NCBI GenBank assembly: GCA_003223215.1
Contig: QHYH01000091.1
Span: forward strand, 60,696 to 124,695
Direction: 5' to 3'
DNA from: Acidobacteriota bacterium
GTDB taxonomy: Bacteria; Acidobacteriota; Terriglobia; Acidiferrales; UBA7541
DNA length: 64,000 nt
Position numbers and translations under genes: made by a program
The notes under the pieces: generated by a model
Seen by the model: the letters and a program-made list of their open reading frames with translations, nothing else
The model's database searches: none
What the model was told of the DNA's origin: nothing
In this document: one piece after another, positions 19,210 to 55,887 of the stretch
Position numbering within the stretch: position 1 is the first letter of the stretch
Layout: each line of letters opens with the position of its first letter

Positions 19210-19424
19210 CAGGTGGGTCGTAAAACCTCGGCGTTTTTAGGCCGAGGATATAAGGCCCCTCTTTGTTTTCCTTCCGAACTGCTCTATATTTCTGTCCGAA
19301 CGACCTATGGGCGGGTCCTCCGCTGAAGTAGGGCGGTTGTGGGAGGAACCCACCGAAGCCATCTCGGGAAAACAAACCGAGAGGCCGTAGGAATCCTCGC
19401 CGCTTGCGGCGGGGAGGATGTCAA
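19210..19424 (+). mobile_element. Non-autonomous IS200/IS605 (IS608-like) mini-element, copy 1
   Basis: Preceded by TTAC; left hairpin CCTCGGCG-TTTTTA-GGCCGAGG; right end GAAT-CCTCGCCGCTTGCGGCGGGGAGG-ATGTCAA; no plausible coding ORF; second copy at 48035-48278. Confidence 0.9.
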
Positions 19425-44017: not shown

Positions 44018-46069
44018 TCAGCCGAGGGTCGCGCGCCAGGCCCTGAGCACTTCGGCAACGGTCCAAGCCTGGGCAATGCATCCTCGGGGGGTGAAAGGAG
44101 CGTCTCCATCGAAAATTTCGCCGAGTGTCCCCAGGCCATAGGATGAAATTTGCCTGCCTAACGGTTCGAGGAAGCTTAACGCCGCTTTGCGGTCGCCGTA
44201 AACGCGCAAGTGCGCCAGCGCAAAGGGTCCCAATAGCCAGCCCCAAACGGTTCCCTGATGGTAGGCGCCGTCGCGCTCGCGCGGGCCGCCGCCATAATGC
44301 CCCTGGTATCCAGGCTCGCCTTGCGCCAGACTGCGCAGGCCGTGCGAGGTCAGCAGGCGGCCGGCGCAAATATCCACAACGGCTTTTTGCTGCTCCCGAG
44401 AAAGAGGACTCTCCGGCAACGACACGGCAAAAATTTGATTGGGACGAAAGGAGGCGTCGCTGCCGATGCGGGGATCGTCGATCACGTCGTAACAGCAATG
44501 GGCTCCCGAGTTCCAGAATTTTGTGAAGTTCTTCCTGACCACCTCTGCCATTTTTTGGAAAGGCTCCGCGGATTTGCCGGTGACCGGCGCCAGCTTGGCC
44601 ATGGTTTTGAGCGCGTTGTACCACAGCGCATTGATTTCAACGGGTTTGCCGATTCGCGGAGTTACCACCCAATCGCCGACTTTCGCATCCATCCAGGTGA
44701 GCTGCACCCCCTCCTCGCCGGCGTAAAGAAGACCATCGGCCGCATCCACGTGAATGTGATATCGAGTGCCATGGAGATGGGCGCTCGTGATTTGCGTCAG
44801 GACCGGGTATAGCTTCAAGATCCCTTCCGCATCTTGGGTTGCCTCGAAGTATTGCCGCACGGCCTCGAAATACCACAGGGCGGCGTCCGCAGTGTTGTAT
44901 TGCGGTACGCCGCCTGCGTCTGGAAAATTGTTGGGCAACATTCCACCATCGACGTAACGGGCGAGGGCAAAAAGAATTTCTCGGGCGATTTCCGGGCGGC
45001 GGGTTGCGAGCGTCAGACCGGGCAACGCAATCATGGTGTCACGGCCCCAATCGCCAAACCAGTGATAACCCGCAATGACAGACCTTCCCTCCGACTCAGC
45101 GGGCAAAGGTCGCTTCACGATGAACTGGTCGGCGGCAAGAATCAGTTGGCGAATCCAGGCAGGCGCAACCGCGGCGGCAACGGCGTCGTTCTCCATCCAC
45201 TTGGAATAAAACCCTCGTTCGTGCTTTACCTGCTCGCTCAGGGTCCGAGCTCCGTCCAGCTCCGCCTGCGGGTCAGTCGTAAAAACAAGTGTCACGCTTT
45301 GGCTTCGAGCGAGTTCGACGCTGGCGGCAGCGGCAAACAGGTAGTCTTCCCGATCGTCGAGCCCGCGAGCGGTCTCCTGCGGCAAAAGAAAGTTGCGGTA
45401 CCAGTCATGTCTTGGTTCAAATCTTGCCGTGGCGCTCAGAAGGCAGAAAGGCGTCGCACCATCAAACGCGGTGATTCGTATTCCATGCCCGACGGACTCG
45501 ACGCGCATGAGCCAATCGCCAGCGTGGGTGCGGGAATGAAAGTCGCGGTAATTGACCAGCGCTTTCACGGCGAGACGAAAGGGGCCGTTCCCGCGGAGCA
45601 GCGAATATTGGACGTAGGTGGTGTTCTCGCCCTGCTGCATCCAGATGCGCTTTTCGAGCAGCGCGTCGGCAAGCGCAAACCGCCACACCGGAATGCTGCC
45701 TTCCAGGCGGAAACTCTCGATGTTGAGATAACCTTGGGGTTCGACGGCGCCGCTCAACCAACGATTTGTAGCGAGCGCGAACTCTGAGCCATCGTAGCCG
45801 ACCGTCTCCTCCAACTTCGCGACCAATTGCGTTCGACCAACGGGTGGATGGAGGGCCGCGACCAACACGCCATGATAGCAACGCGTCACGTCGCCACTGA
45901 CGGTTCCCGAGGCATAGCCGCCGATTCCGTTGGTGACCAGCCATTCCCGCTGTTCGGCGATTTCGAGAGAGCCGCAGACCTCGCGGCCGAATTCGACGGC
46001 AGCGTGCGACTCAGGAGCGGCCGATTCTTGTTCGGTAGACGGGTTCGCCCTTTTCTCCGTTGTCGCCAT
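44018..46069 (-). CDS. Glycogen debranching enzyme (amylo-alpha-1,6-glucosidase)
   Basis: EWLVTNGIGGYAS, AGYHWFGDWGRDT, LTWMDAK, GKPVEINALW, YHQGTVW, QAWTVAE. Confidence 0.93.
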   Translation of the reverse strand: MATTEKRANPSTEQESAAPESHAAVEFGREVCGSLEIAEQREWLVTNGIGGYASGTVSGDVTRCYHGVLVAALHPPVGRTQLVAKLEETVGYDGSEFALATNRWLSGAVEPQGYLNIESFRLEGSIPVWRFALADALLEKRIWMQQGENTTYVQYSLLRGNGPFRLAVKALVNYRDFHSRTHAGDWLMRVESVGHGIRITAFDGATPFCLLSATARFEPRHDWYRNFLLPQETARGLDDREDYLFAAAASVELARSQSVTLVFTTDPQAELDGARTLSEQVKHERGFYSKWMENDAVAAAVAPAWIRQLILAADQFIVKRPLPAESEGRSVIAGYHWFGDWGRDTMIALPGLTLATRRPEIAREILFALARYVDGGMLPNNFPDAGGVPQYNTADAALWYFEAVRQYFEATQDAEGILKLYPVLTQITSAHLHGTRYHIHVDAADGLLYAGEEGVQLTWMDAKVGDWVVTPRIGKPVEINALWYNALKTMAKLAPVTGKSAEPFQKMAEVVRKNFTKFWNSGAHCCYDVIDDPRIGSDASFRPNQIFAVSLPESPLSREQQKAVVDICAGRLLTSHGLRSLAQGEPGYQGHYGGGPRERDGAYHQGTVWGWLLGPFALAHLRVYGDRKAALSFLEPLGRQISSYGLGTLGEIFDGDAPFTPRGCIAQAWTVAEVLRAWRATLG

Positions 46070-46140
46070 CTTCAAACCGATTCCATTTTAGTCTTGTACA
46101 GCAATTCCGCTTTCCGTTTATTGCCGAACTCACTTATCGC

Positions 46141-46169: not shown

Positions 46170-46293
46170 GAGCGCACGAAACGCAAGGCTATTTAGCTGG
46201 GTTACAGGGTTCAGGACGCTCCTTTCGGTGGAATCGCGCCGACCTTTGTTCCCGATCCCGGATCGAAACGCATCACTTCATGGAGGCGTCGTT

Positions 46294-48003
46294 GTGACTT
46301 GGACACAAGTTTACGACCCGGTGGGGCATTGGTGGCTTTCCACGATCATCGCGGCTCTCCCCATCCTGGTGCTTCTGGGACTCCTTGCCGGCCTTCGCTT
46401 GAAACCGCACATTTGTGCCGTTGCCGGCGCGGCAACCGCAGTCCTTGTCGCCATTCTCGCCTTTAAGATGCCAGCCCTCCTGGCTGTTTCCAGCTTCTTC
46501 TACGGCTCGGCTTTTGGTTTCCTCAAAATCGTTTGGATTGTCATCGCCGCCGTCTTCCTCTATGACATATCCGTCGAGACTGGCCAGTTCGAGATCATGA
46601 AGCAATCGGTCGCGGCCATTACCCCCGATCGCCGCTTGCAGGTTCTCCTGGTCGCTTTCTGTTTCGGCGCCTTCATCGAAGGCTCCGCGGGATTCGGCGC
46701 GCCCGTGGCCATCGCCGGCGCGTTCATGATCGGACTCGGCTTCAAACCCTTTCAAGCTGCTGCGCTGAACCTGATCGCCAACACTGCTCCGGTAGCCTGG
46801 GGCTCGATCGGCATCCCCGTCCATACGCTCGCGGCGGTCACGGCGCTTAACGAGAGCGACCTCAGCGCCATGATCGGCCGCATCCTTCCCATCACTGCTG
46901 TCACGGTTGCCTTCTGGCTGGTCCGCACCATGGTCAGTTGGAGGGAAACCTGGGAGGTCTTTCCCGCCATCCTCGTTGTCGGCGGATCCTTTGCGACCAC
47001 CCAATGGTTCTGGGCCAATTACCGGGACAGCAATCTCGTGGATATCATCGCCGCCGTCGTTTCCCTGCTCGCCGCGCTGCTTTTTCTCCGCGTCTGGCAA
47101 CCCAAGAGAATCTGGCGCTTTGCCGACGAACCATCCATCAGCGCGGCCGAAGCCCGGGATTCCGTCAAGCACTTCACCACCCGCCAAATTGCCAGGGCCT
47201 GGATGCCCTTTGCCGTCTTGTCGCTCATCGTTCTTGTTTGGGGATTGCCCAGCTTCAAGCTGGCCATGAACCGCGCCACAACTCCCGCCTTCCGAGTCGT
47301 CATGGCGGACGGAAAAGCTCGTCCTGGCCCACCGGGATGGGACTGGCCCTACCTTCACAACAAAGTGCTTCGAACGACTCCGGTCGTGCCGAAACCCACC
47401 GCCGAAGGTGCGCGCTTTGACTTCAATTGGCTCACCGCCACGGGAACCGGGTGCTTCATCGCCGCTCTGCTTACCGGATTTATTCTTGGCCTCAGGCCAA
47501 AGAGACTGCTTTACATTTTCTTCCGAACTTTCGTCCGTCTGCGCTTTGCCATCATGGCCATGACCTGCATGCTGGGCCTTGGTTTCATCACGCGATACTC
47601 GGGCATGGACGCGGTCCTTGGTCTGGCCTTCACACGCACGGGGTGGTTCTTTCCCTTCTTTGGCACTTACATCGGCTGGCTTGGCGTCGCCCTGACCGGC
47701 AGCGATACCTCTTCCAATGCGCTGTTCGGTGGTCTGCAAAAAATCACCGCGCAACAGCTCCATTTGAGCCCCATTCTCATGTGCGGCGCGAACAGCGCCG
47801 GTGGCGTTATGGGCAAGATGATCGATGCGCAATCGATTTGCATCGCTACCGCGGCGACCAATCAGGTTGGCAACGAAGGCGCCATCTTCCGCTTCGTTTT
47901 CTGGCACTCCGTGGCGCTTGCAGCCATCGTCGGAGTCATCGTGATGGTGTACGCCTACGTGTTGCCGCAGTTCATACCCAGCGGATTGAACTTCATTCGC
48001 TGA
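46294..48003 (+). CDS. lctP: L-lactate/glycolate permease
   Basis: FIEGSAGFGAP, ANTAPVAWG, TGSDTSSNALF, GKMIDAQS; GTG 46294 after GGAGG. Confidence 0.93.
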   Translation: MTWTQVYDPVGHWWLSTIIAALPILVLLGLLAGLRLKPHICAVAGAATAVLVAILAFKMPALLAVSSFFYGSAFGFLKIVWIVIAAVFLYDISVETGQFEIMKQSVAAITPDRRLQVLLVAFCFGAFIEGSAGFGAPVAIAGAFMIGLGFKPFQAAALNLIANTAPVAWGSIGIPVHTLAAVTALNESDLSAMIGRILPITAVTVAFWLVRTMVSWRETWEVFPAILVVGGSFATTQWFWANYRDSNLVDIIAAVVSLLAALLFLRVWQPKRIWRFADEPSISAAEARDSVKHFTTRQIARAWMPFAVLSLIVLVWGLPSFKLAMNRATTPAFRVVMADGKARPGPPGWDWPYLHNKVLRTTPVVPKPTAEGARFDFNWLTATGTGCFIAALLTGFILGLRPKRLLYIFFRTFVRLRFAIMAMTCMLGLGFITRYSGMDAVLGLAFTRTGWFFPFFGTYIGWLGVALTGSDTSSNALFGGLQKITAQQLHLSPILMCGANSAGGVMGKMIDAQSICIATAATNQVGNEGAIFRFVFWHSVALAAIVGVIVMVYAYVLPQFIPSGLNFIR

Positions 48004-48034: not shown

Positions 48035-48278
48035 GTGAACATCCTCCCCGCCGCAAGCGGCGAGGATTCCTACGGCCTCTCGGTTTGTTTTTCCGAGATG
48101 GCTTCGGTGGGTTCCTCCACAACCGCCCTACTTCAGCGGAGGACCACGAAGAGGCTTTACTTTTGGGCTGCCCGCCCATAGGTGGTGCGGACAGAAGAAA
48201 TAGAGAGCAGTTCGGAAGCAAAGAAAGAGGGGCCTTCTATCCTCGGCCTAAAAACGCCGAGGCTTTGCGGCCCACCTG
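48035..48278 (-). mobile_element. Non-autonomous IS200/IS605 (IS608-like) mini-element, copy 2
   Basis: On the minus strand TTAC|CAGGTGGG...AAAG-hairpin...GAAT-hairpin-ATGTTCAC; close match to copy 1 with about 29 nt extra internally. Confidence 0.9.
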
Positions 48279-48292
48279 GTAAGTTCCTGCTT

Positions 48293-49741
48293 ATGGACCT
48301 TCGCATCCTCAACGAATTCCGCTCGATCGTCGGCAACGGTGGCCTCATCTGCTCGCCTGAGGAACTGCACACCTACGAATGCGACGGCCTTACGAATTTC
48401 CGCGTACTGCCCCGCGCGGTCTTGCTTCCGTCTTCGACCGCGCAAGTTCAGTCCATAGTGCGTCTGTGCCATCGCGAAAGAATTCCTTTCGTCGCACGCG
48501 GTTCGGGCACGGGCCTTAGTGGCGGTGCCTTGCCTGTCGCAAACGGCATTGTCCTCAGCCTGGCGCGCATGAATCGCATCCGCGAGGTGGACATTCCGAA
48601 TGCGCGTGTTGTCGTCGAGCCGGGAGTCATCAACCTGGACGTCACCGGGCGCGTCCAGTCCCAGGATTATTTCTACGCACCCGATCCTTCTTCGCAATCG
48701 GTTTGCAGCATTGGCGGCAACGTCGCGGAAAACGCCGGCGGCGCGCATTGCCTCAAATACGGCTTCACCACCACGCATGTCCTCGGCCTGGAAGTCGTTC
48801 TTCCCGACGGCTCGCTCGTCCATCTCGGCGGGAAAACGCTCGATACGCCCGGCTATGACCTTGTCGGCGTTTTTGTCGGCTCCGAAGGCACCCTCGGCGT
48901 GGCCACGAAAATCATTCTGCGCATCGTCAAGCGCCCCGAATGCGTTCGCGCGCTGCTGGCTGCGTTTCCGACCACCAACGAGGCGGGCGCGGCTGTCAGC
49001 GGCATCATCGCCGCGGGGATGCTGCCCGCCGCCATCGAAATGATGGACAAGCTCGCGATTCAGGCCGCGGAAGCCGCTGTCCACGCGAACTATCCCGATT
49101 GCGGCGGGCTGCTTCTGGTCGAACTCGACGGCCCACTTGGCGAAGTCGAAGCGCTCATGACCCAGGTCGATGAAATTTGCCGTTCAAACGGTGCTTGGGA
49201 AATTCGCGTCGCGCAATCCGAAGCCGAGCGCGCGCTCGTCTGGAAAGGCCGCAAAGCTGCTTTTGCCGCGGTTGGCCGGATCTCTCCGAACTACATTGTT
49301 CAGGACGGCGTAATTCCCCGCACCGCTCTTCCCCAGGTGATGGGCGAAATCGCACGGCTCAGCCGAGAAAACGGCTTGCGCGTTGCCAACGTTTTTCACG
49401 CTGGCGACGGCAATCTCCATCCGCTGGTTCTGTACGATCGCCGAATCCACGGGCAGGAAGACGCCGCCCTCGCGCTCTCCTTCAAGATTCTGGAAGTCTG
49501 TATCGCCGCCGGCGGCTCCATCACCGGCGAGCACGGGGTCGGCGAAGAGAAAAAATGCATGATGTCCAAAATGTTTGCCGAGCCCGATCTCGCCACCATG
49601 CAGCGGGTCCGCTGCGCCTTCGATCCCTTGCAACTCTCGAATCCTACGAAAGTTTTCCCCACGCCGCGTCTCTGTGGCGAGAAGCCCGGCGAATATCTGC
49701 CCCACCCCGTCGAATCCGCGGGTCTCGCGGAGCGCTCTTAG
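48293..49741 (+). CDS. glcD: Glycolate oxidase FAD-linked subunit
   Basis: RGSGTGLSGG, APDPSSQ, GNVAENAGGAHCLKYG, HAGDGNLHP, GEHGVG. Confidence 0.93.
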   Translation: MDLRILNEFRSIVGNGGLICSPEELHTYECDGLTNFRVLPRAVLLPSSTAQVQSIVRLCHRERIPFVARGSGTGLSGGALPVANGIVLSLARMNRIREVDIPNARVVVEPGVINLDVTGRVQSQDYFYAPDPSSQSVCSIGGNVAENAGGAHCLKYGFTTTHVLGLEVVLPDGSLVHLGGKTLDTPGYDLVGVFVGSEGTLGVATKIILRIVKRPECVRALLAAFPTTNEAGAAVSGIIAAGMLPAAIEMMDKLAIQAAEAAVHANYPDCGGLLLVELDGPLGEVEALMTQVDEICRSNGAWEIRVAQSEAERALVWKGRKAAFAAVGRISPNYIVQDGVIPRTALPQVMGEIARLSRENGLRVANVFHAGDGNLHPLVLYDRRIHGQEDAALALSFKILEVCIAAGGSITGEHGVGEEKKCMMSKMFAEPDLATMQRVRCAFDPLQLSNPTKVFPTPRLCGEKPGEYLPHPVESAGLAERS

Positions 49742-49770: not shown

Positions 49771-49803
49771 AGGCGGTGTAAGCTATCAGCGCGATCGACA
49801 GAC

Positions 49804-51120
49804 ATGACCCCCATCTCCGCCACGCTTCAAAACAACCTCCGCGCCGTCCTCAGCGCCGATCAAATCCGCCCCGCCTCTCCGGCGGACTCGATTTGCGGGG
49901 TTCAGCCGCAATTCCTGATCGAACCTGCCACCGAACAACAACTGGCTACCGCGCTTCGCCTCGCCGATGAATCCCAACTTGCCGTTATCCCGCGCGGCGG
50001 CGCCAGCAAACTCGGCTGGGGCAATGCGCCGTCGCGCGCCGATTTACTTCTTTCCACAGCGCGCCTGAGCCGCATCGTCGAACACGCCTGGGGCGACCTC
50101 ACCGTCACGGTGGAAGCAGGCTGCACGATCGAGACTTTGCAGCAAACGCTCGCCGAGCACGGCCAGCGCCTTGCCATCGATCCGCTGTGGCCGGAGAAAG
50201 CCACCGTTGGCGGCGTGCTTTCCAGCAACGACAGCGGCGCGCTGCGACTCCGCTTTGGAGCGCTGCGCGACCTCATCATCGGCGTCACGATAGCTCTTGC
50301 TGACGGCACGCTCGCCTCCAGCGGCGGCAAAGTCGTCAAGAATGTTGCGGGCTACGATCTTCCAAAACTCGTCACCGGCGCGCTCGGCACGCTTGGCGTC
50401 ATCACCCGCGCAGTCTTTCGCCTGCATCCCCTGCCGCGCCATAGCCGTTCGTTCACCATTTCCGTCAGCAATCCTCGGGAAGCACAGCAAATCATTCTTG
50501 CCATCCAGGATTCCAAACTTGCTCATGTTGCGCTTCAATCGCAGTTCTCGGCCGAAGCTTTGCCGGTGATCGACATTCTCTTCGAAGGCACGGAAGCTGG
50601 CCTCGATGCGCAAGCAAGCCAGTTACGCGGGTTCTGTAAGTCCGCAAAAAGCTCCCTGGCTCAGGTTCACCCCGAGCCGCGAACGGTCACGAACGCGAAA
50701 GCCTCGTCTTCTCCGAGCCCATGGAATGCCCGGGAAGACCTCTGGTCGTTCTCCAACCCGGCGGAAAACGCCATCGCCAAAATCAGCGTGCTCCCCGCCG
50801 ATCTCGCGCGCACCGTCGAACTCATTCGCACCGTCGCCGAGCCCTCGCGAGTCAACTGGAAACTCCTTCTGTATGCAACGGGTCTCGGCTGGCTGCGCGG
50901 GGAAGGCCCTGCCGGCAATTTGCACCGCGCGCTGACGACACTGCGTGCGGAGCTCGAGAAAATGGGCGGCTCTCTCGCCGTGCTTCATCGTCCGGCGAAC
51001 ATGCAGGCTTTCGACGCCTGGGGCTCCCCAGGCGATTCCCTGCCTCTCCTGAAAGCCGTCAAGACCCGCCTCGACCCCTGGAGCACGCTGAATCCCGGGC
51101 GCTTTGTCGGCGGCATCTGA
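49804..51120 (+). CDS. glcE: Glycolate oxidase FAD-binding subunit
   Basis: TVEAG, GKVVKNVAGYDLPKL, LNPGR; follows glcD. Confidence 0.9.
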   Translation: MTPISATLQNNLRAVLSADQIRPASPADSICGVQPQFLIEPATEQQLATALRLADESQLAVIPRGGASKLGWGNAPSRADLLLSTARLSRIVEHAWGDLTVTVEAGCTIETLQQTLAEHGQRLAIDPLWPEKATVGGVLSSNDSGALRLRFGALRDLIIGVTIALADGTLASSGGKVVKNVAGYDLPKLVTGALGTLGVITRAVFRLHPLPRHSRSFTISVSNPREAQQIILAIQDSKLAHVALQSQFSAEALPVIDILFEGTEAGLDAQASQLRGFCKSAKSSLAQVHPEPRTVTNAKASSSPSPWNAREDLWSFSNPAENAIAKISVLPADLARTVELIRTVAEPSRVNWKLLLYATGLGWLRGEGPAGNLHRALTTLRAELEKMGGSLAVLHRPANMQAFDAWGSPGDSLPLLKAVKTRLDPWSTLNPGRFVGGI

Positions 51121-51197
51121 AGCCGCCACGTTTTAGGCCATGATTTGACTTGGCATCTACCGCCACATAACATGGCACTTTCTCAAAAGCCCACGGC

Positions 51198-54171
51198 ATG
51201 ATCGGCACACTTGTCTCGAACTACCGGATTCTTGAAAAACTGGGCGGCGGGGGGATGGGTGTCGTCTATAAGGCGGAAGACACGCGTCTGGGACGCTTTG
51301 TTGCGCTCAAATTTCTTCCTGAAGAATTAGCCAAAGATCCTTTGGTGCTCGAGCGCTTTCAGCGCGAAGCCCGCGCCGCCTCTTCGCTGAATCACCCGAG
51401 TATTTGCACCATTTATGACATCGGCGAATCCGCCGGCCGCAATTTTCTCGTCATGGAGTATCTCGAAGGCCACACCCTTCGTGATCGCATCGCGGGCCGC
51501 CCTCTCCCGCTGGACTTGCTTCTGGACCTGGGGGGCCAGGTGGCCGACGCGCTGGACGCCGCGCACGCCAAAAGCATCGTCCACCGCGACATCAAGCCAG
51601 CCAATATTTTTGTGACCGCCCGCAGCCAAGCCAAGATTCTCGACTTCGGTCTCGCCAAGATCGGTCCGCGCGCTGCGTCCCCCGTTTCCGCAATGACGAC
51701 TGCGTCGGACGCCACTGTTCTCGACGACCATCTCACCAGTCCAGGCACGGCGGTCGGCACGATCGCTTACATGTCACCGGAACAGGTTCGCGGCGAGGAA
51801 CTCGATGCCCGCACGGATCTGTTTTCCTGCGGGGTGGTTCTTTATGAAATGGCGACCGGCAATCAGCCCTTTCCCGGCGCAACCTCTGGCGTGATCTTCG
51901 ACGGAATCCTCAATCGCCAACCCGTCGAGCCGCTCCGGCTCAACCCCATACTGCCCGTGGAGCTTGAGCGCATCTTGAACAAGGCGCTCGAAAAAGACCG
52001 CACGCTGCGTTACCAGACAGCTTCGGACTTGCGCGCCGACCTCCAGCGACAACAGCGAGATTCCAATTCCGGGAAAGCCCGGGCGTGGCAGGCAACTTCC
52101 GTAGCTACGGCCGCCGCCAGACAATCGGAGGCTCCTTCACCGCCACTTCCGGGGCAAAGCGGGAGCAGGAAAAGACCTTTTCGCTCATCGAGAGACAAAA
52201 AGATTGCGGGCGTATGCGCGGGCTTGGCCGATTATTGGGACACCGATGCCACGCTCATCCGAGTGCTCTGGCTCGTCGTGGGCCTTACTACAGGGATCGG
52301 CCTTCTCGCTTACCCGTTTCTCTGGATGGTTTTGCCCCTCGCGCCAGCCGAAGGGGTTCCGTCTTCGGCAACTGCAGCGGGAACAGTGCGATCGCAGGCC
52401 GAAAAGGCAAAAACCAAATCACTGGGCATAAAAAACCCGAGCGTCGCGATCCCGGTCTTGGTTGTGGCCGCTTTACTCGCAGCGGTCCTTTACTTCTGGC
52501 CTCGCGGCCGGCCGCGCACTGATTTCTCGTCCATCCGCATGCAGCGAATCACCACGACCGGCCAAGCCGTTTCTGCGGCAGTCTCTTTCGATGGCCGCTA
52601 TGTCGCCTATTGCCAGGACAACAATGGAAAGAAAAGCCTCTGGCTTCGCCAGCTGGCCTCGACCAATAGCGTTCAACTTCTCCCTTCGGCCCCGCGCCCC
52701 ATGCTCATCCCAGAATTCACCCCGGACGGGGGCTTCATTGATTATCTCGAAAGAGTGAATCCCACCGACAAATCCCTTTACCAGATTCCCGTGCTGGGGG
52801 GGCACGCCGCGCAAGCTGGTGGACCACGTTGATAGTCTCGTTACGTTCTCTCCCGACGGGAGCCAAATGGCTTTTGTCCGCAACGATGGTGTCAAAGGCG
52901 AATCTTCCCTCATCCTCGCCGATCCTTCTGGCGCTCATGAAACCCATCTGGCTACCCGCCGCATCGGCAATGACATCGGTCCTTTTGACCTTCCTTCCTG
53001 GGCGCCGGACGGCAGGACCATTACCGTTTCGGTTGCCGACCCCGCCTCCGACGGCCTGTACATCCATCTGTTGAATGTCTCCGTCCGCGACGGTTCCGCC
53101 ACGTCTTTTTCGCCGGTCCATTGGAGGAGCTTAAACGACACTCGCTGGCTTCCCGACGGCAGCGGCATGCTTATCGCCGCTCAGGAAAGAAGCGGCGCTC
53201 CCCAGCAAATCTATTGGAATGCGGAAGGCAGCGGGGAAGTACGCAAGATCACCGGTGACGTGAACAGTTACTTATCTCTCAGCGTGGGCTCCGATTCCCG
53301 CTCTTTCCTGGCCGTCCAGAGCGACATCAACGTCAATGTCTGGGTTGGTCCCGGGAACGACCCCGATGCCGCCGTGCAAGTCACCTCCGGAAGAATGGAC
53401 GGCATCGGCGGTCTCGCTTGGACCACCGACGGCCGCATTGTCTATCAAGGAAACGTCGGGGACAGCTATCAAATCTGGATGGTCAATGCCGACGGCTCCG
53501 CGGCCCACCAAGTGACCAACGACCGCTACTTCCACACCCATCCCGCGGTCTGCGAATCAGGCCACTCCATTGTTTTTGAATCCGACCCCACGGGCCTTCA
53601 GCACCTCTTCAAGACAGACCTCGACGGCAACAATCTCACGCAAATCACCAGCGGCGCTGGCGAAGGCAGCCCTAGCTGCCGCATGCAATCCGGCGATGTT
53701 GTCTTTTCCGGAACTGACCCCAACCGGCACACCCTGCTCTACAAGATGGAGCTGGGCGGAGCTTCGCCGGTCGCGCTTTCCGATCGGTTGCTTGTCAGCA
53801 AGCCGGTTTATTCTCCCGACGGAACCTGCATTTTGGCCGCCCTTATGGATCCGAAGACCGGGACCGTCAAAGGCTCGCTTGTTCCCGCTTCGGGCGGCGC
53901 CCCGCGCTACTCCCGCGATATTCCATCCACTCTGGATCCCATGGGAGTCGTCGGCTGGATGGCCGACGGAGGGAGCTTTGCCGCGCTCGATGACCGCAGC
54001 GGGATCCGCAATCTCTGGACCTTTCCCTTTGACGGCAGCCCGGGCAAACAAATCACGCATTTTCAGCGGTCGGAAATCCACGGCTTTGCCTGGTCTCCGG
54101 ACGGGAAGCGCATTGCCCTCTCGCGCGGTCCCATCGAACAGAACGTGGTGCTTATCAAAACCGGTTCTTAG
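51198..54171 (+). pseudogene. Ser/Thr protein kinase-PspC-TM-TolB/PD40 beta-propeller fusion with a +1 frameshift in a G7 run (52796-52802)
   Basis: [30 protein letters not shown]; PspC-like [18 protein letters not shown]; removing one G gives [14 protein letters not shown], joining ORF 52819-54171 (SPDG repeats). Confidence 0.88.
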
Positions 54172-54567
54172 CCTCGCGAGCTCATGCGTTTCGGCTTTGC
54201 CCCGGCACGCCCGGATAGCGAAGGATCCTGACCCGCATTCATCCTGCTTGCGGGCTCGCTGCCCATCCCGAACTCGCCAAGAGCTACAGCGGCTGGCCGA
54301 GAATGCTCGGCTGGCTGTGACCAACCCGTGACCGGAGGTTGGTTGGCTTGAGCGGGTTTGCGATCGTCGCAAGTTTCGCCGAGTTCCAGGAAGGCTTGCA
54401 TCCCGCCGGCGAGGAATCGCAACTGGACGCGCCCGTGCCGGGCTCTTCACCCCTGGGATTAGACCTTCATAGCCCGAGCGTTGCGCAGTTGACGGTCGCG
54501 CAAACCATTGCCTCATTGTCGTTCCTTCGGGTACCTTCGGAGTTGGCAACTGGCTTCAAATCTCGCG

Positions 54568-55887
54568 ATGGCCACCACGCCAAACTCGCTTCCTTCCGCT
54601 TTTGACGCGCAGCATCCGCCGGCGGCGGACATTGTCGACAAGTGCGTGCACTGCGGCTTCTGTCTTCCTGTCTGCCCGACTTACCTCCTTTGGGGACAGG
54701 AAATGGATTCGCCGCGCGGCCGCATCTACCTCGTGAAGCTCGCCGGGGAAGGAGCGGCCGAGATCAACTCCAAATGGGTGAGTCACTTCGATAGCTGCCT
54801 CGGCTGCATGGCCTGCATGACGGCGTGCCCTTCGGGCGTGGACTACGGCAAACTGATCGAGGCCACCCGCGCGCAGATCGAGCGAAACTTCACACGGCCT
54901 TCCGGCGAGAAACGTCATCGCCATTTCCTGTTCGAGACGTTTACCCGGCCGGATCGCCTCGATCGCTTGCGCGCGCCGCTCCTCGCCTATCAAAAATCCG
55001 GCCTGCAAGCTCTGGCTCGCGGACTCGGTCTCGTCAGGCTGCTCCCGAAGAAATGGCGGACGATGGAGGCGCTGCTTCCAAGACTTACGCCTCAGGAAGC
55101 GGTTTTGGAAGTCACGCCTGCCGTCGGCACGAAACGCCGGCGCGTCGGCCTGCTTCTCGGTTGCGTGCAGCGCGTATTTTTCTCGCAGGTCAATGCCGCC
55201 ACGGCACGCGTCCTCGCTCGAGAGGGCTGCGAGGTGGTCGCTCCACAAACGCAAGCTTGCTGTGGGGCCTTGCTTGTGCATGCGGGAGAAGAGGCTGCTG
55301 CCATCGACCTCGCCAAGAAGACGATGGATGCCTTCGAGCAGGCCAACGTTGAAACGATTGTGACGAATGCCGCCGGATGCGGCTCCAACGTGAAGGAATA
55401 CGGCCACCTGCTTCGCGATGACCCGCAATATGCCGAACGCGCGCAAAGATTTGCCGCGAAGTGCAGGGACATCAGCGAAGTCTTAACGGAGCTCGAGCCG
55501 CGCTCGAAGCGTCATCCACTGAAGCTGCGCGTCGCGTTTCACGATTCTTGCCATTTGCAGCACGCGCAAGGGGTACACTCGCAGCCCCGAGCTTTGCTTT
55601 CCAGCATTCCCGGCCTCGAACTCGAGGAGATTGCGGAATCGGCGATCTGCTGCGGTTCCGCGGGAATCTACAATCTCGTGCAGCCCGACGCTGCGCGATC
55701 GCTCGGCGACCGCAAAGCCGAACTCGTTTCTCAACTTGGCGCCGACGTGGTCGCTACCGGCAATCCCGGCTGCATGCTCCAGCTGCAGTCGGCCCTCTCG
55801 CGCCGTCATCTGAAGACGCCCGTTGTCCACTCGATTCAGCTTCTCGACGCTTCCTTGCGCGCCCAGTCATTCGATTCCTTCCGATAG
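54568..55887 (+). CDS. glcF: Glycolate oxidase iron-sulfur subunit
   Basis: CVHCGFCLPVC, CLGCMAC..C, CCG domains, HDSCHLQH, CCGSAGIYN. Confidence 0.93.
   Translation: MATTPNSLPSAFDAQHPPAADIVDKCVHCGFCLPVCPTYLLWGQEMDSPRGRIYLVKLAGEGAAEINSKWVSHFDSCLGCMACMTACPSGVDYGKLIEATRAQIERNFTRPSGEKRHRHFLFETFTRPDRLDRLRAPLLAYQKSGLQALARGLGLVRLLPKKWRTMEALLPRLTPQEAVLEVTPAVGTKRRRVGLLLGCVQRVFFSQVNAATARVLAREGCEVVAPQTQACCGALLVHAGEEAAAIDLAKKTMDAFEQANVETIVTNAAGCGSNVKEYGHLLRDDPQYAERAQRFAAKCRDISEVLTELEPRSKRHPLKLRVAFHDSCHLQHAQGVHSQPRALLSSIPGLELEEIAESAICCGSAGIYNLVQPDAARSLGDRKAELVSQLGADVVATGNPGCMLQLQSALSRRHLKTPVVHSIQLLDASLRAQSFDSFR

Follow-up and report, generated by a model that had tools for sequence, protein, structure and literature searches.

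A receptor Ser/Thr kinase with a PspC cassette in soil Acidobacteriota, and a copy probably inactivated by a frameshift

Introduction

Ser/Thr kinases of the PknB/PknD type are RD kinases that are activated through dimerisation, and PknD of Mycobacterium tuberculosis is a receptor kinase with the order kinase, transmembrane (TM) helix and NHL beta-propeller. Apart from PspA, no Psp component is as widespread as PspC, and both its role in stress sensing and its membrane topology are still debated. In Actinobacteria, PspC and LiaI-LiaF-TM are found fused to histidine kinases (HISKIN), and Corynebacterium glutamicum has a three-component envelope-stress system (PMC9239133, PMC11237479). The gene considered here lies at 51198-54171 of a 64,000-nucleotide stretch (64 kb; the window) of contig QHYH01000091.1 from an Acidobacteriota bacterium, and it joins PspC to a kinase of the Hanks Ser/Thr class. 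Taken as a whole, the window copy is probably a frameshift-inactivated, lineage-specific copy of a receptor kinase whose intact orthologues have the order kinase, PspC, TM helix and tandem propellers, the last predicted to be periplasmic.

A first-pass annotation, made from the letters of the DNA, had called the gene a Ser/Thr kinase fused to PspC and a TolB-like propeller, and had described PspC as usually stand-alone or joined to a histidine kinase and the present architecture as one not known to be characterised. Both statements agree with the literature searched. Two large surveys of Psp systems record PspC fusions to HISKIN, HAAS, Toastrack, ZnR (zinc ribbon), LiaI-LiaF-TM, PspB and PspA, and no fusion to a Ser/Thr kinase (PMC11237479, PMC9239133). 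Full-text literature searches found no relevant paper on PspC with a Ser/Thr kinase, no description of the acidobacterial kinase-propeller family and no functionally characterised member of it. Among the best 150 of 12,586 PspC-matching proteins, the long ones were multi-PspC, LiaI-LiaF-TM, Toastrack or TM2 proteins, and a kinase was present only in one fragment of the family described here; beyond those 150, other fusions of this kind may exist.

Results

Reading frames and domain architecture

The ORF (open reading frame) listing of the window gives two plus-strand ORFs across the locus, not one (Table 1). In three-frame translation, frame 0 runs to ...LYQIPVLGG, continues for nine out-of-frame residues (HAAQAGGPR) and stops, while orthologous sequence resumes in frame +1; the frame is lost after residue 534, and the propeller region, read in frame 0 as far as the break, is read in frame +1 from 52804 onward. 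The break coincides with a run of seven G residues (G7; 52796-52802), the sole G7 run within the window, where the closest intact relative (locus L001, 99.1% identical over 10.2 kb) has six (G6). Deleting one G gives an uninterrupted protein of 990 residues, as the earlier figure of about 990 aa for the frame-corrected product anticipated, and this protein is collinear with, and 98% identical to, the intact metagenomic protein P0001. The downstream part, for which the mechanical call begins at a GTG, is annotated by JGI and NCBI as a 434-aa gene with its ATG at 52867. Antisense and alternative-frame ORFs over the locus have zero Pfam matches and are spurious high-GC ORFs. No second PspC gene or kinase paralogue was found in the window.

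The domain calls of the first-pass annotation (Pkinase, PspC and PD40) stand on profile scores, for the corrected and the uncorrected protein alike. The kinase scores 156.4 bits against a threshold of 31.7 for PF00069 in the corrected protein, over profile positions 1-253 of 263 (158 bits in the uncorrected ORF1). The window sequence itself has the GxGxxG loop (G16/G18/G21), K38, E57, H129-R130-D131, N136, D149-F150-G151, the activation-loop residues T180 and T188, and S193-P194-E195, and across 105 homologues the catalytic residues show little or no variation. Linker 1, which follows, is 67% identical among orthologues.

The PspC segment scores 72.0 bits against a gathering threshold (GA) of 25 for PF04024 over profile positions 1-57 of 58 in the corrected protein, and 73.2 bits in the uncorrected 544-aa ORF; the earlier worry that it would fail to score as PspC has thus not come true. 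The 56-letter peptide singled out at the start is present as K325-P380 in frame 0, at nucleotides 52170-52337, close to the extent of about 52170-52345 first given. It has a basic N-flank, a short amphipathic helix (336-347), a conserved arginine (Arg355) and a hydrophobic stretch of 29 residues that contains G362, G366 and G368 and is interrupted at G366, so as to form helices 351-365 and 367-378. Across 45 orthologues the arginine is nearly invariant and the mid-stretch Gly/Pro is conserved. The segment conforms to the pattern of cryptic helix, Arg and main helix (Ravi et al. 2024) and has the intrahelical Gly (Jovanovic et al. 2010). Linker 2 has two to four Lys/Arg residues immediately ahead of TM2. 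The second TM segment reported after PspC is indeed there, a hydrophobic helix at about 416-434 that is followed by PD40/DPPIV_N/TolB-like repeats over the C-terminal ~545 aa.

The propeller region scores 53 bits for PD40 (threshold 20.9) and 43 bits for DPPIV_N, and it matches TolB chains at E about 6e-9. It falls well under the cut-off of the TolB equivalog TIGR02800 (109.9 bits, in four partial stretches, vs 343); on sequence, the TolB likeness is one of repeat type alone, the relation is distant, and the region is not TolB proper, which has an N-terminal TolA-binding domain and a single six-bladed propeller. All of the 105 sequences, whether or not they have PspC, keep two cysteines of the propeller region, C785 and C827.

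An AlphaFold2 model of P0001, built with 105 sequences, has a mean pLDDT (predicted local distance difference test) of 77.8. The kinase is confidently modelled. PspC reaches a pLDDT of about 75, with the helices 336-347, 351-365 and 367-378; residues 290-325 (pLDDT <50) and 384-416 are disordered linkers, a helix spans 417-433, and a confident all-beta region at 446-988 has strands sufficient for two propellers. A Foldseek search with the full model returned kinase matches only, to PknB, PknA and Stk1, with TM-scores (target) of 0.78-0.87 and E 5e-20; for PknB and PknA the TM-score is 0.79-0.86 and the identity 35-38%. No solved structure matching the PspC segment was found.

The family of intact orthologues

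Intact orthologues fall into 45 full-length clusters at 90% identity, with lengths from 961 to 1003 aa (mostly 986-1003). Their identity to the corrected query is 71-98%, and every one has PF04024; the protein search also returned fragments of the same family. All 8000 of the 8000 scored candidates lay at E<=1e-10, in keeping with the earlier remark that kinase-TM-propeller proteins are common in Acidobacteria, and most among the matches listed are paralogues of ~912 aa without PspC, 44-48% identical in full alignment. Two family-specific peptide patterns found eight loci among 185,579 species genomes (GTDB), all of them metagenome-assembled genomes (MAGs) labelled Candidatus Acidoferrum, Terriglobia or Acidobacteria gp2. 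Automated annotation already tags some family members with PspC and TolB terms.

The intact orthologues are under purifying selection. Over 11 intact coding sequences (CDSs), with dS about 1, the ratio of non-synonymous to synonymous rates (dN/dS) is 0.15 overall, 0.07 in the kinase, 0.27 in PspC, 0.50 in linker 2, 0.35 in the TM helix and 0.16 in the propeller region; the value for PspC indicates that this segment, too, is kept by selection.

A genuine frameshift that arose once

Homopolymer runs are well known for indel errors, and the first-pass annotation had treated the frame break as a mere thing to correct. If the break were a sequencing or assembly error, the gene would be intact in the organism; we give this reading almost no credence. 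G7 is present in the window and in four independent assemblies from two centres (JGI 3300012206 and 3300012359; ENA ERZ27286564 and ERZ28573699), and four Logan soil-run assemblies match the window across the site with zero differences at a word depth of 7-22x, so that the same run is repeated in different centres and samples. At least 20 soil runs contain all sampled 31-mers of the G7 locus. One exact 544-aa form recurs on 63 contigs, and G7 is linked to five diagnostic substitutions with which it travels. In GenBank, the 544-aa form is OLB32029.1, next to OLB32030.1, both hypothetical proteins of 'Acidobacteria bacterium 13_2_20CM_58_27'. Assembly error as the origin of the break is ruled out by the recurrence in independent assemblies, Logan runs and 63 contigs, and what had been taken for something to repair is a real, lineage-wide frameshift that probably leaves the window copy non-functional.

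The comparisons of G7 with G6 are based on assembled contigs. In these, 8/8 intact close relatives carry the ancestral haplotype, and all frameshifted forms carry a separate one; since intact and frameshifted forms are two separate haplotypes, G7 arose once. The G run itself is not conserved, as other orthologues encode the Gly-Gly pair as GGA GGC or GGC GGA, and hence there is no conserved slippery site.

These observations bear on the notion that the frameshift is compensated, by +1 ribosomal or transcriptional slippage on G7 or by a phase-variable switch, and that the full-length receptor is made after all. The mechanism is conceivable: within G7, a tRNA-Gly paired with GGG can move one base downstream and still pair perfectly, which restores the orthologous LGGTPRK, and the downstream frame is still open. 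We nevertheless hold it to be very unlikely. An unbroken G6 is seen in the nearest relative only, the run being interrupted in other orthologues; G6 and G7 sequences fall into two distinct haplotype groups, as would not be expected under frequent switching; and the substitution pattern on the window branch is relaxed (see below). Moreover, contigs from the RNA-labelled soil runs X26 and X27 that cover 51000-54400 match the gene at ~97% identity. Their run is G6, yet differences at ~3% of the remaining positions assign them to another strain, apparently one with an intact gene; they hint, weakly, that this intact gene is expressed. A programmed frameshift was rejected, the orthologues being without a conserved slippery run, and of phase variation there was no sign.

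Decay of the window copy

In our view, a young pseudogene is a fairly likely reading of the window copy. Four outgroups served to polarise the 32 codons that differ between the window and L001, which places 14 non-synonymous and 2 synonymous changes on the window branch, evenly split over both halves of the gene, and 6:4 on the intact branch. Against the family dN/dS baseline of 0.15, the 14:2 ratio gives p=5e-6; the flanking genes, unpolarised, stand at 18:22, and the contrast with 14:2 is significant by Fisher's test at p=0.006. L186V, F211C, R877C, L903R and P937R occur in all G7 forms, at sites on which 34-44 of 44 orthologues agree, and F211 is shared by 104/105 sequences. A further change, G18E at the second Gly of the GxGxxG ATP loop, is found in many of the frameshifted haplotypes, the commonest (63 contigs) among them, but not in the window copy, which keeps Gly there; among the G7-lineage proteins G18E is seen in P0390, P0398, P0400, P0056, P0058 and P0059.

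Several points weigh against calling the gene dead. Once polarised, the flanks have 7 non-synonymous to 6 synonymous changes on that same branch, so that the excess in the gene is suggestive only (Fisher p=0.09), and very short branches generally inflate dN/dS. Both ORFs are open in every G7 contig. The main rival to the pseudogene call is accordingly a functional truncated or split gene, in which the 544-aa product would act as a propeller-less kinase with PspC only, the downstream ORF being either silent or expressed as a product of its own. The absence of a second frameshift or stop in 1.35 kb speaks for such a product, as do the intact kinase motifs of the window copy and the wide spread and abundance of the allele in soil metagenomes. 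We regard it as unlikely, since 7 of the 14 derived non-synonymous changes, F211C among them, fall in the kinase/PspC half, since the commonest haplotype carries G18E in its ATP-binding loop, and since a propeller started at an internal ATG or GTG would have no export signal.

Membrane topology

The order of kinase, membrane anchor and propeller is that of PknD-like receptors, and the single-TM paralogues point to a periplasmic propeller. The difficulty is PspC. The first-pass annotation had supposed that the extra membrane segment might flip the propeller, and this would follow if the PspC stretch were a single spanning helix, with linker 2 in the periplasm and the propellers in the cytoplasm. 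In favour of this, there are just two clear hydropathy peaks, the 'cryptic' helix 336-347 has three Asp residues and is too short for a bilayer, Arg residues follow TM2, and older models together with one PhoA fusion place the C-terminus of Escherichia coli PspC in the periplasm (PMC3068692). Positive-inside charge counts around TM2 do not separate the two topologies.

It is nonetheless quite likely that the kinase is inside, that PspC forms a hairpin, that linker 2 is inside as well, and that TM2 leads to a propeller outside; the PspC stretch, broken at the conserved Gly/Pro, would enter and leave the membrane from the cytoplasmic side, and TM2 would still carry the propeller to the periplasm. 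This arrangement is favoured because of the homology of TM2, the invariance of the two propeller cysteines in 105 sequences, the tandem PspC units of other proteins and published work on PspC. In the PspC-less paralogues and in P0048 the propeller is necessarily outside, and their single TM is collinear with TM2 and the residues downstream of it; as the homologue of the ancestral single TM, with PspC inserted upstream, TM2 makes a flip unlikely. The PspC-less paralogues, too, have basic residues beyond their TM, and the two cysteines are kept with or without PspC. The best PspC matches very often have 2-5 PspC units in tandem, every unit with the same basic N-flank, and such arrays seem easier to explain if both ends of a unit face the same compartment. 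(The multi-PspC proteins include P0134, P0142, P0241-P0389 and P0275; the last, of 1129 aa, has two TM2 domains and five PspC.) The AlphaFold2 helix breaks in mid-stretch, at the conserved Gly/Pro. In the literature, PspC is described as a cryptic TM and a TM on either side of the conserved Arg (Ravi et al., PMC11237479). In another study the topology predictions include N-in/C-in (TOPCONS), the mid-helix Gly is functionally essential, and PspA is bound by the C-terminal part, which together with TOPCONS favours N-in/C-in (PMC3068692). The flipped topology is, on this balance, improbable.

Origin of the PspC cassette

In alignment with the PspC-less paralogues, PspC and about 25 further residues form one clean insertion of ~85 aa in the linker between kinase and TM; TM2 aligns with the single TM of those paralogues, and the sequence beyond it runs collinearly into the propeller. 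The nearest free PspC proteins are zinc-ribbon-PspC (ZnR-PspC) proteins of ~110 aa from the same bacteria, 58-65% identical over 72-90 aa. This alignment spans the basic N-flank, the PspC domain and a short tail beyond the hydrophobic stretch (the tail comparison includes LPLAPAGVIPTSATAAS), and the C-terminal tail of the free proteins has its homologue in the first ~17 residues of linker 2. The ZnR-PspC proteins are the likely donor on sequence grounds, and the simplest history would be that an ordinary acidobacterial kinase-TM-propeller gene gained the PspC-plus-tail part of a ZnR-PspC gene: the PspC and C-terminal tail of a resident gene, minus the zinc ribbon, would have been captured into the juxtamembrane linker.

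One protein, P0048 (906 aa, on an 83-kb JGI contig), is a 78% identical sister that is without exactly the PspC-plus-tail cassette. In a neighbour-joining (NJ) tree that excludes the cassette columns, and which has no support values, it nests in the PspC-bearing clade, which suggests that it may have lost the cassette secondarily. P0048 may be a natural deletion variant or an assembly artefact.

Gene neighbourhood

The kinase gene lies between glcE-like and glcF-like genes, splitting glcDE from glcF, with a lactate permease gene upstream (Table 1) and Ldh_2 and MFS transporter genes farther downstream on the other strand. It is directly 3' of a glcE-like gene, on the same strand, in 13/13 orthologue loci examined; a glcF-like gene is downstream in L001, L006, L011, L012 and L013 only, and in L007, L009 and L014-L018 glcF is not downstream. 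The clade being narrow, this gene order may be inherited rather than a sign of functional coupling. In L016 (4023-5140; gp2 MAG QHYL01000130) the glcE-like gene matches as two adjacent pieces with a few-base overlap, which suggests a frameshift or an assembly indel there.

Among the neighbours within about 10 kb, which serve transport and lactate/glycolate oxidation, no psp genes (pspA, pspB and pspF included), FHA-domain genes or phosphatase genes were seen, and the free ZnR-PspC gene has no adjoining psp partners, pspA included. The number of promoter-like sites is at chance level, 1 found against 0.7 expected by chance. A sequence of ~108 bp at 48039-48145, between lctP and glcD, recurs inverted at 19314-19421, ~29 kb away and 98% identical. 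The idea that it might be a tRNA was rejected, the whole window being without tRNA, and it may be a small intergenic repeat element. A gene for a glycogen-debranching enzyme (GDE_N and GDE_C, 685 aa) occupies 44018-46075 on the minus strand, between an aminotransferase gene and the lactate permease gene; the more distant syntenic loci L007 and L009 do not have this gene there.

Table 1. Window coordinates of the kinase locus, its parts and the adjoining genes
Feature	Position	Strand	Details
Lactate permease	46228-48003	+	Pfam
GlcD-like FAD oxidase	48182-49741	+	Pfam
GlcE-like FAD-binding subunit	about 49798-51120	+	Pfam
Promoter-like site TTGACT-17-TAACAT	51145-51173	+	in the 77-bp gap from the glcE-like gene to the kinase ATG; weak
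ORF1	51198-52832	+	544 aa; kinase, linker, PspC, linker, TM and ~95 aa of propeller start
Hanks-type Ser/Thr kinase domain	51222-52016	+	residues 9-273; Pfam PF00069
Linker 1	52017-52169	+	residues 274-324; Ala/Ser/Pro-rich, predicted disorder from about 290
PspC domain	52170-52340	+	residues 325-381; PF04024
Linker 2	52341-52442	+	residues 382-415; variable, disordered, Ser/Thr/Ala/Pro-rich
TM2	52443-52499	+	residues about 416-434; alignment, AlphaFold2 helix 417-433, Kyte-Doolittle hydropathy peak
PD40/TolB-like beta-propeller region	52518-54171	+	residues 441-990; predicted periplasmic, probably two propellers
G7 homopolymer	52796-52802	+	one G above the G6 of the closest intact relative; +1 frameshift
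ORF2	52819-54171	+	frame +1, GTG start, 450 aa (mechanical ORF call)
GlcF-like Fe-S/CCG subunit	54508-55887	+	Pfam

Discussion

In the intact orthologues, the kinase would be switched on as PknB and PknD are, when it dimerises and autophosphorylates its activation loop, with ligand binding by the periplasmic propellers as a first input. A second input could come from the PspC hairpin, which, beside the TM helix, would respond to the condition of the inner membrane or to a partner of the PspC type. It is possible, and we put it forward tentatively, that PspC is a true regulatory input here, that the protein is a one-protein sensor of the envelope or of membrane energy which bypasses both PspA/PspF and two-component signalling and is perhaps tied to the lactate/glycolate-oxidation operon, and that the fusion is natural evidence for a PspC with both ends in the cytoplasm. 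The gene context does not support a link to the Psp response, the clade has no cultured member, and the function proposed here is predicted from sequence. The earlier proposal of an envelope-stress sensor wired to Ser/Thr phosphorylation is likewise still inference: there are no PspA, PspB or PspF genes nearby, and the conserved neighbours concern lactate/glycolate oxidation.

A conserved fusion to a Ser/Thr kinase would put the PspC module into a third signalling chemistry. Moreover, the cassette lies between a cytoplasmic kinase and an ancestral TM helix, which constrains the topology of PspC, and a PspC with both ends in the cytoplasm would, if true, bear on a long-debated question. The family comes with its own natural controls, namely P0048, which is without the cassette, and the lineage in which the propeller is cut off by the frameshift. 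The limits are plain enough: the family occurs in only a few soil Acidobacteria, all uncultured, the window copy is broken, and function is a matter of inference.

Comparison with known systems

The acidobacterial kinase-TM-PD40 proteins without PspC (~912 aa, P0062-P0120; and P0048) are collinear with the present protein and 44-48% identical to it (78% for P0048), share the same catalytic residues and the same two propeller cysteines, and differ in being without the ~85-aa PspC-plus-tail cassette. The free ZnR-PspC proteins (P0131, P0164 and P0153) differ in being stand-alone, in having an N-terminal zinc ribbon, which the kinase is without, and in their genomic context; this architecture was noted by Ravi et al. 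(PMC11237479). With the proteobacterial PspC of E. coli and Yersinia the segment shares a basic N-flank, the conserved Arg and a hydrophobic helix whose Gly matters for function (PMC3068692), but the window protein scores only 43.8 bits against the TIGR02978 cut-off of 104 and 29.8 against 136 for PRK10697; in place of a C-terminal leucine-zipper/PspA-binding region there is a disordered linker, and pspA, pspB and pspF are not nearby.

Among receptor kinases, PknD resembles the family in combining a cytoplasmic RD kinase with a beta-propeller sensor, extracytoplasmic in PknD and predicted to be so here, whereas PknD has one six-bladed NHL propeller and no PspC, and the present proteins have PD40/TolB-type repeats that probably make two propellers. 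The PspC histidine kinases of Actinobacteria are alike in that PspC is covalently joined to a membrane signalling kinase, in a PspA-free context and with a presumed membrane-proximal input. They differ on three counts. First, the kinase here is of the Hanks Ser/Thr type, with no matches to HisKA or HATPase_c; second, PspC is the N-terminal input there, whereas here it is C-terminal to the kinase and ahead of the TM; and third, the present proteins have a large, predicted periplasmic tandem propeller and no response regulator gene nearby. The resemblance, as an analogy, would be functional and architectural only, and on those terms the actinobacterial PspC histidine kinases appear as the closest described analogue of the acidobacterial family.

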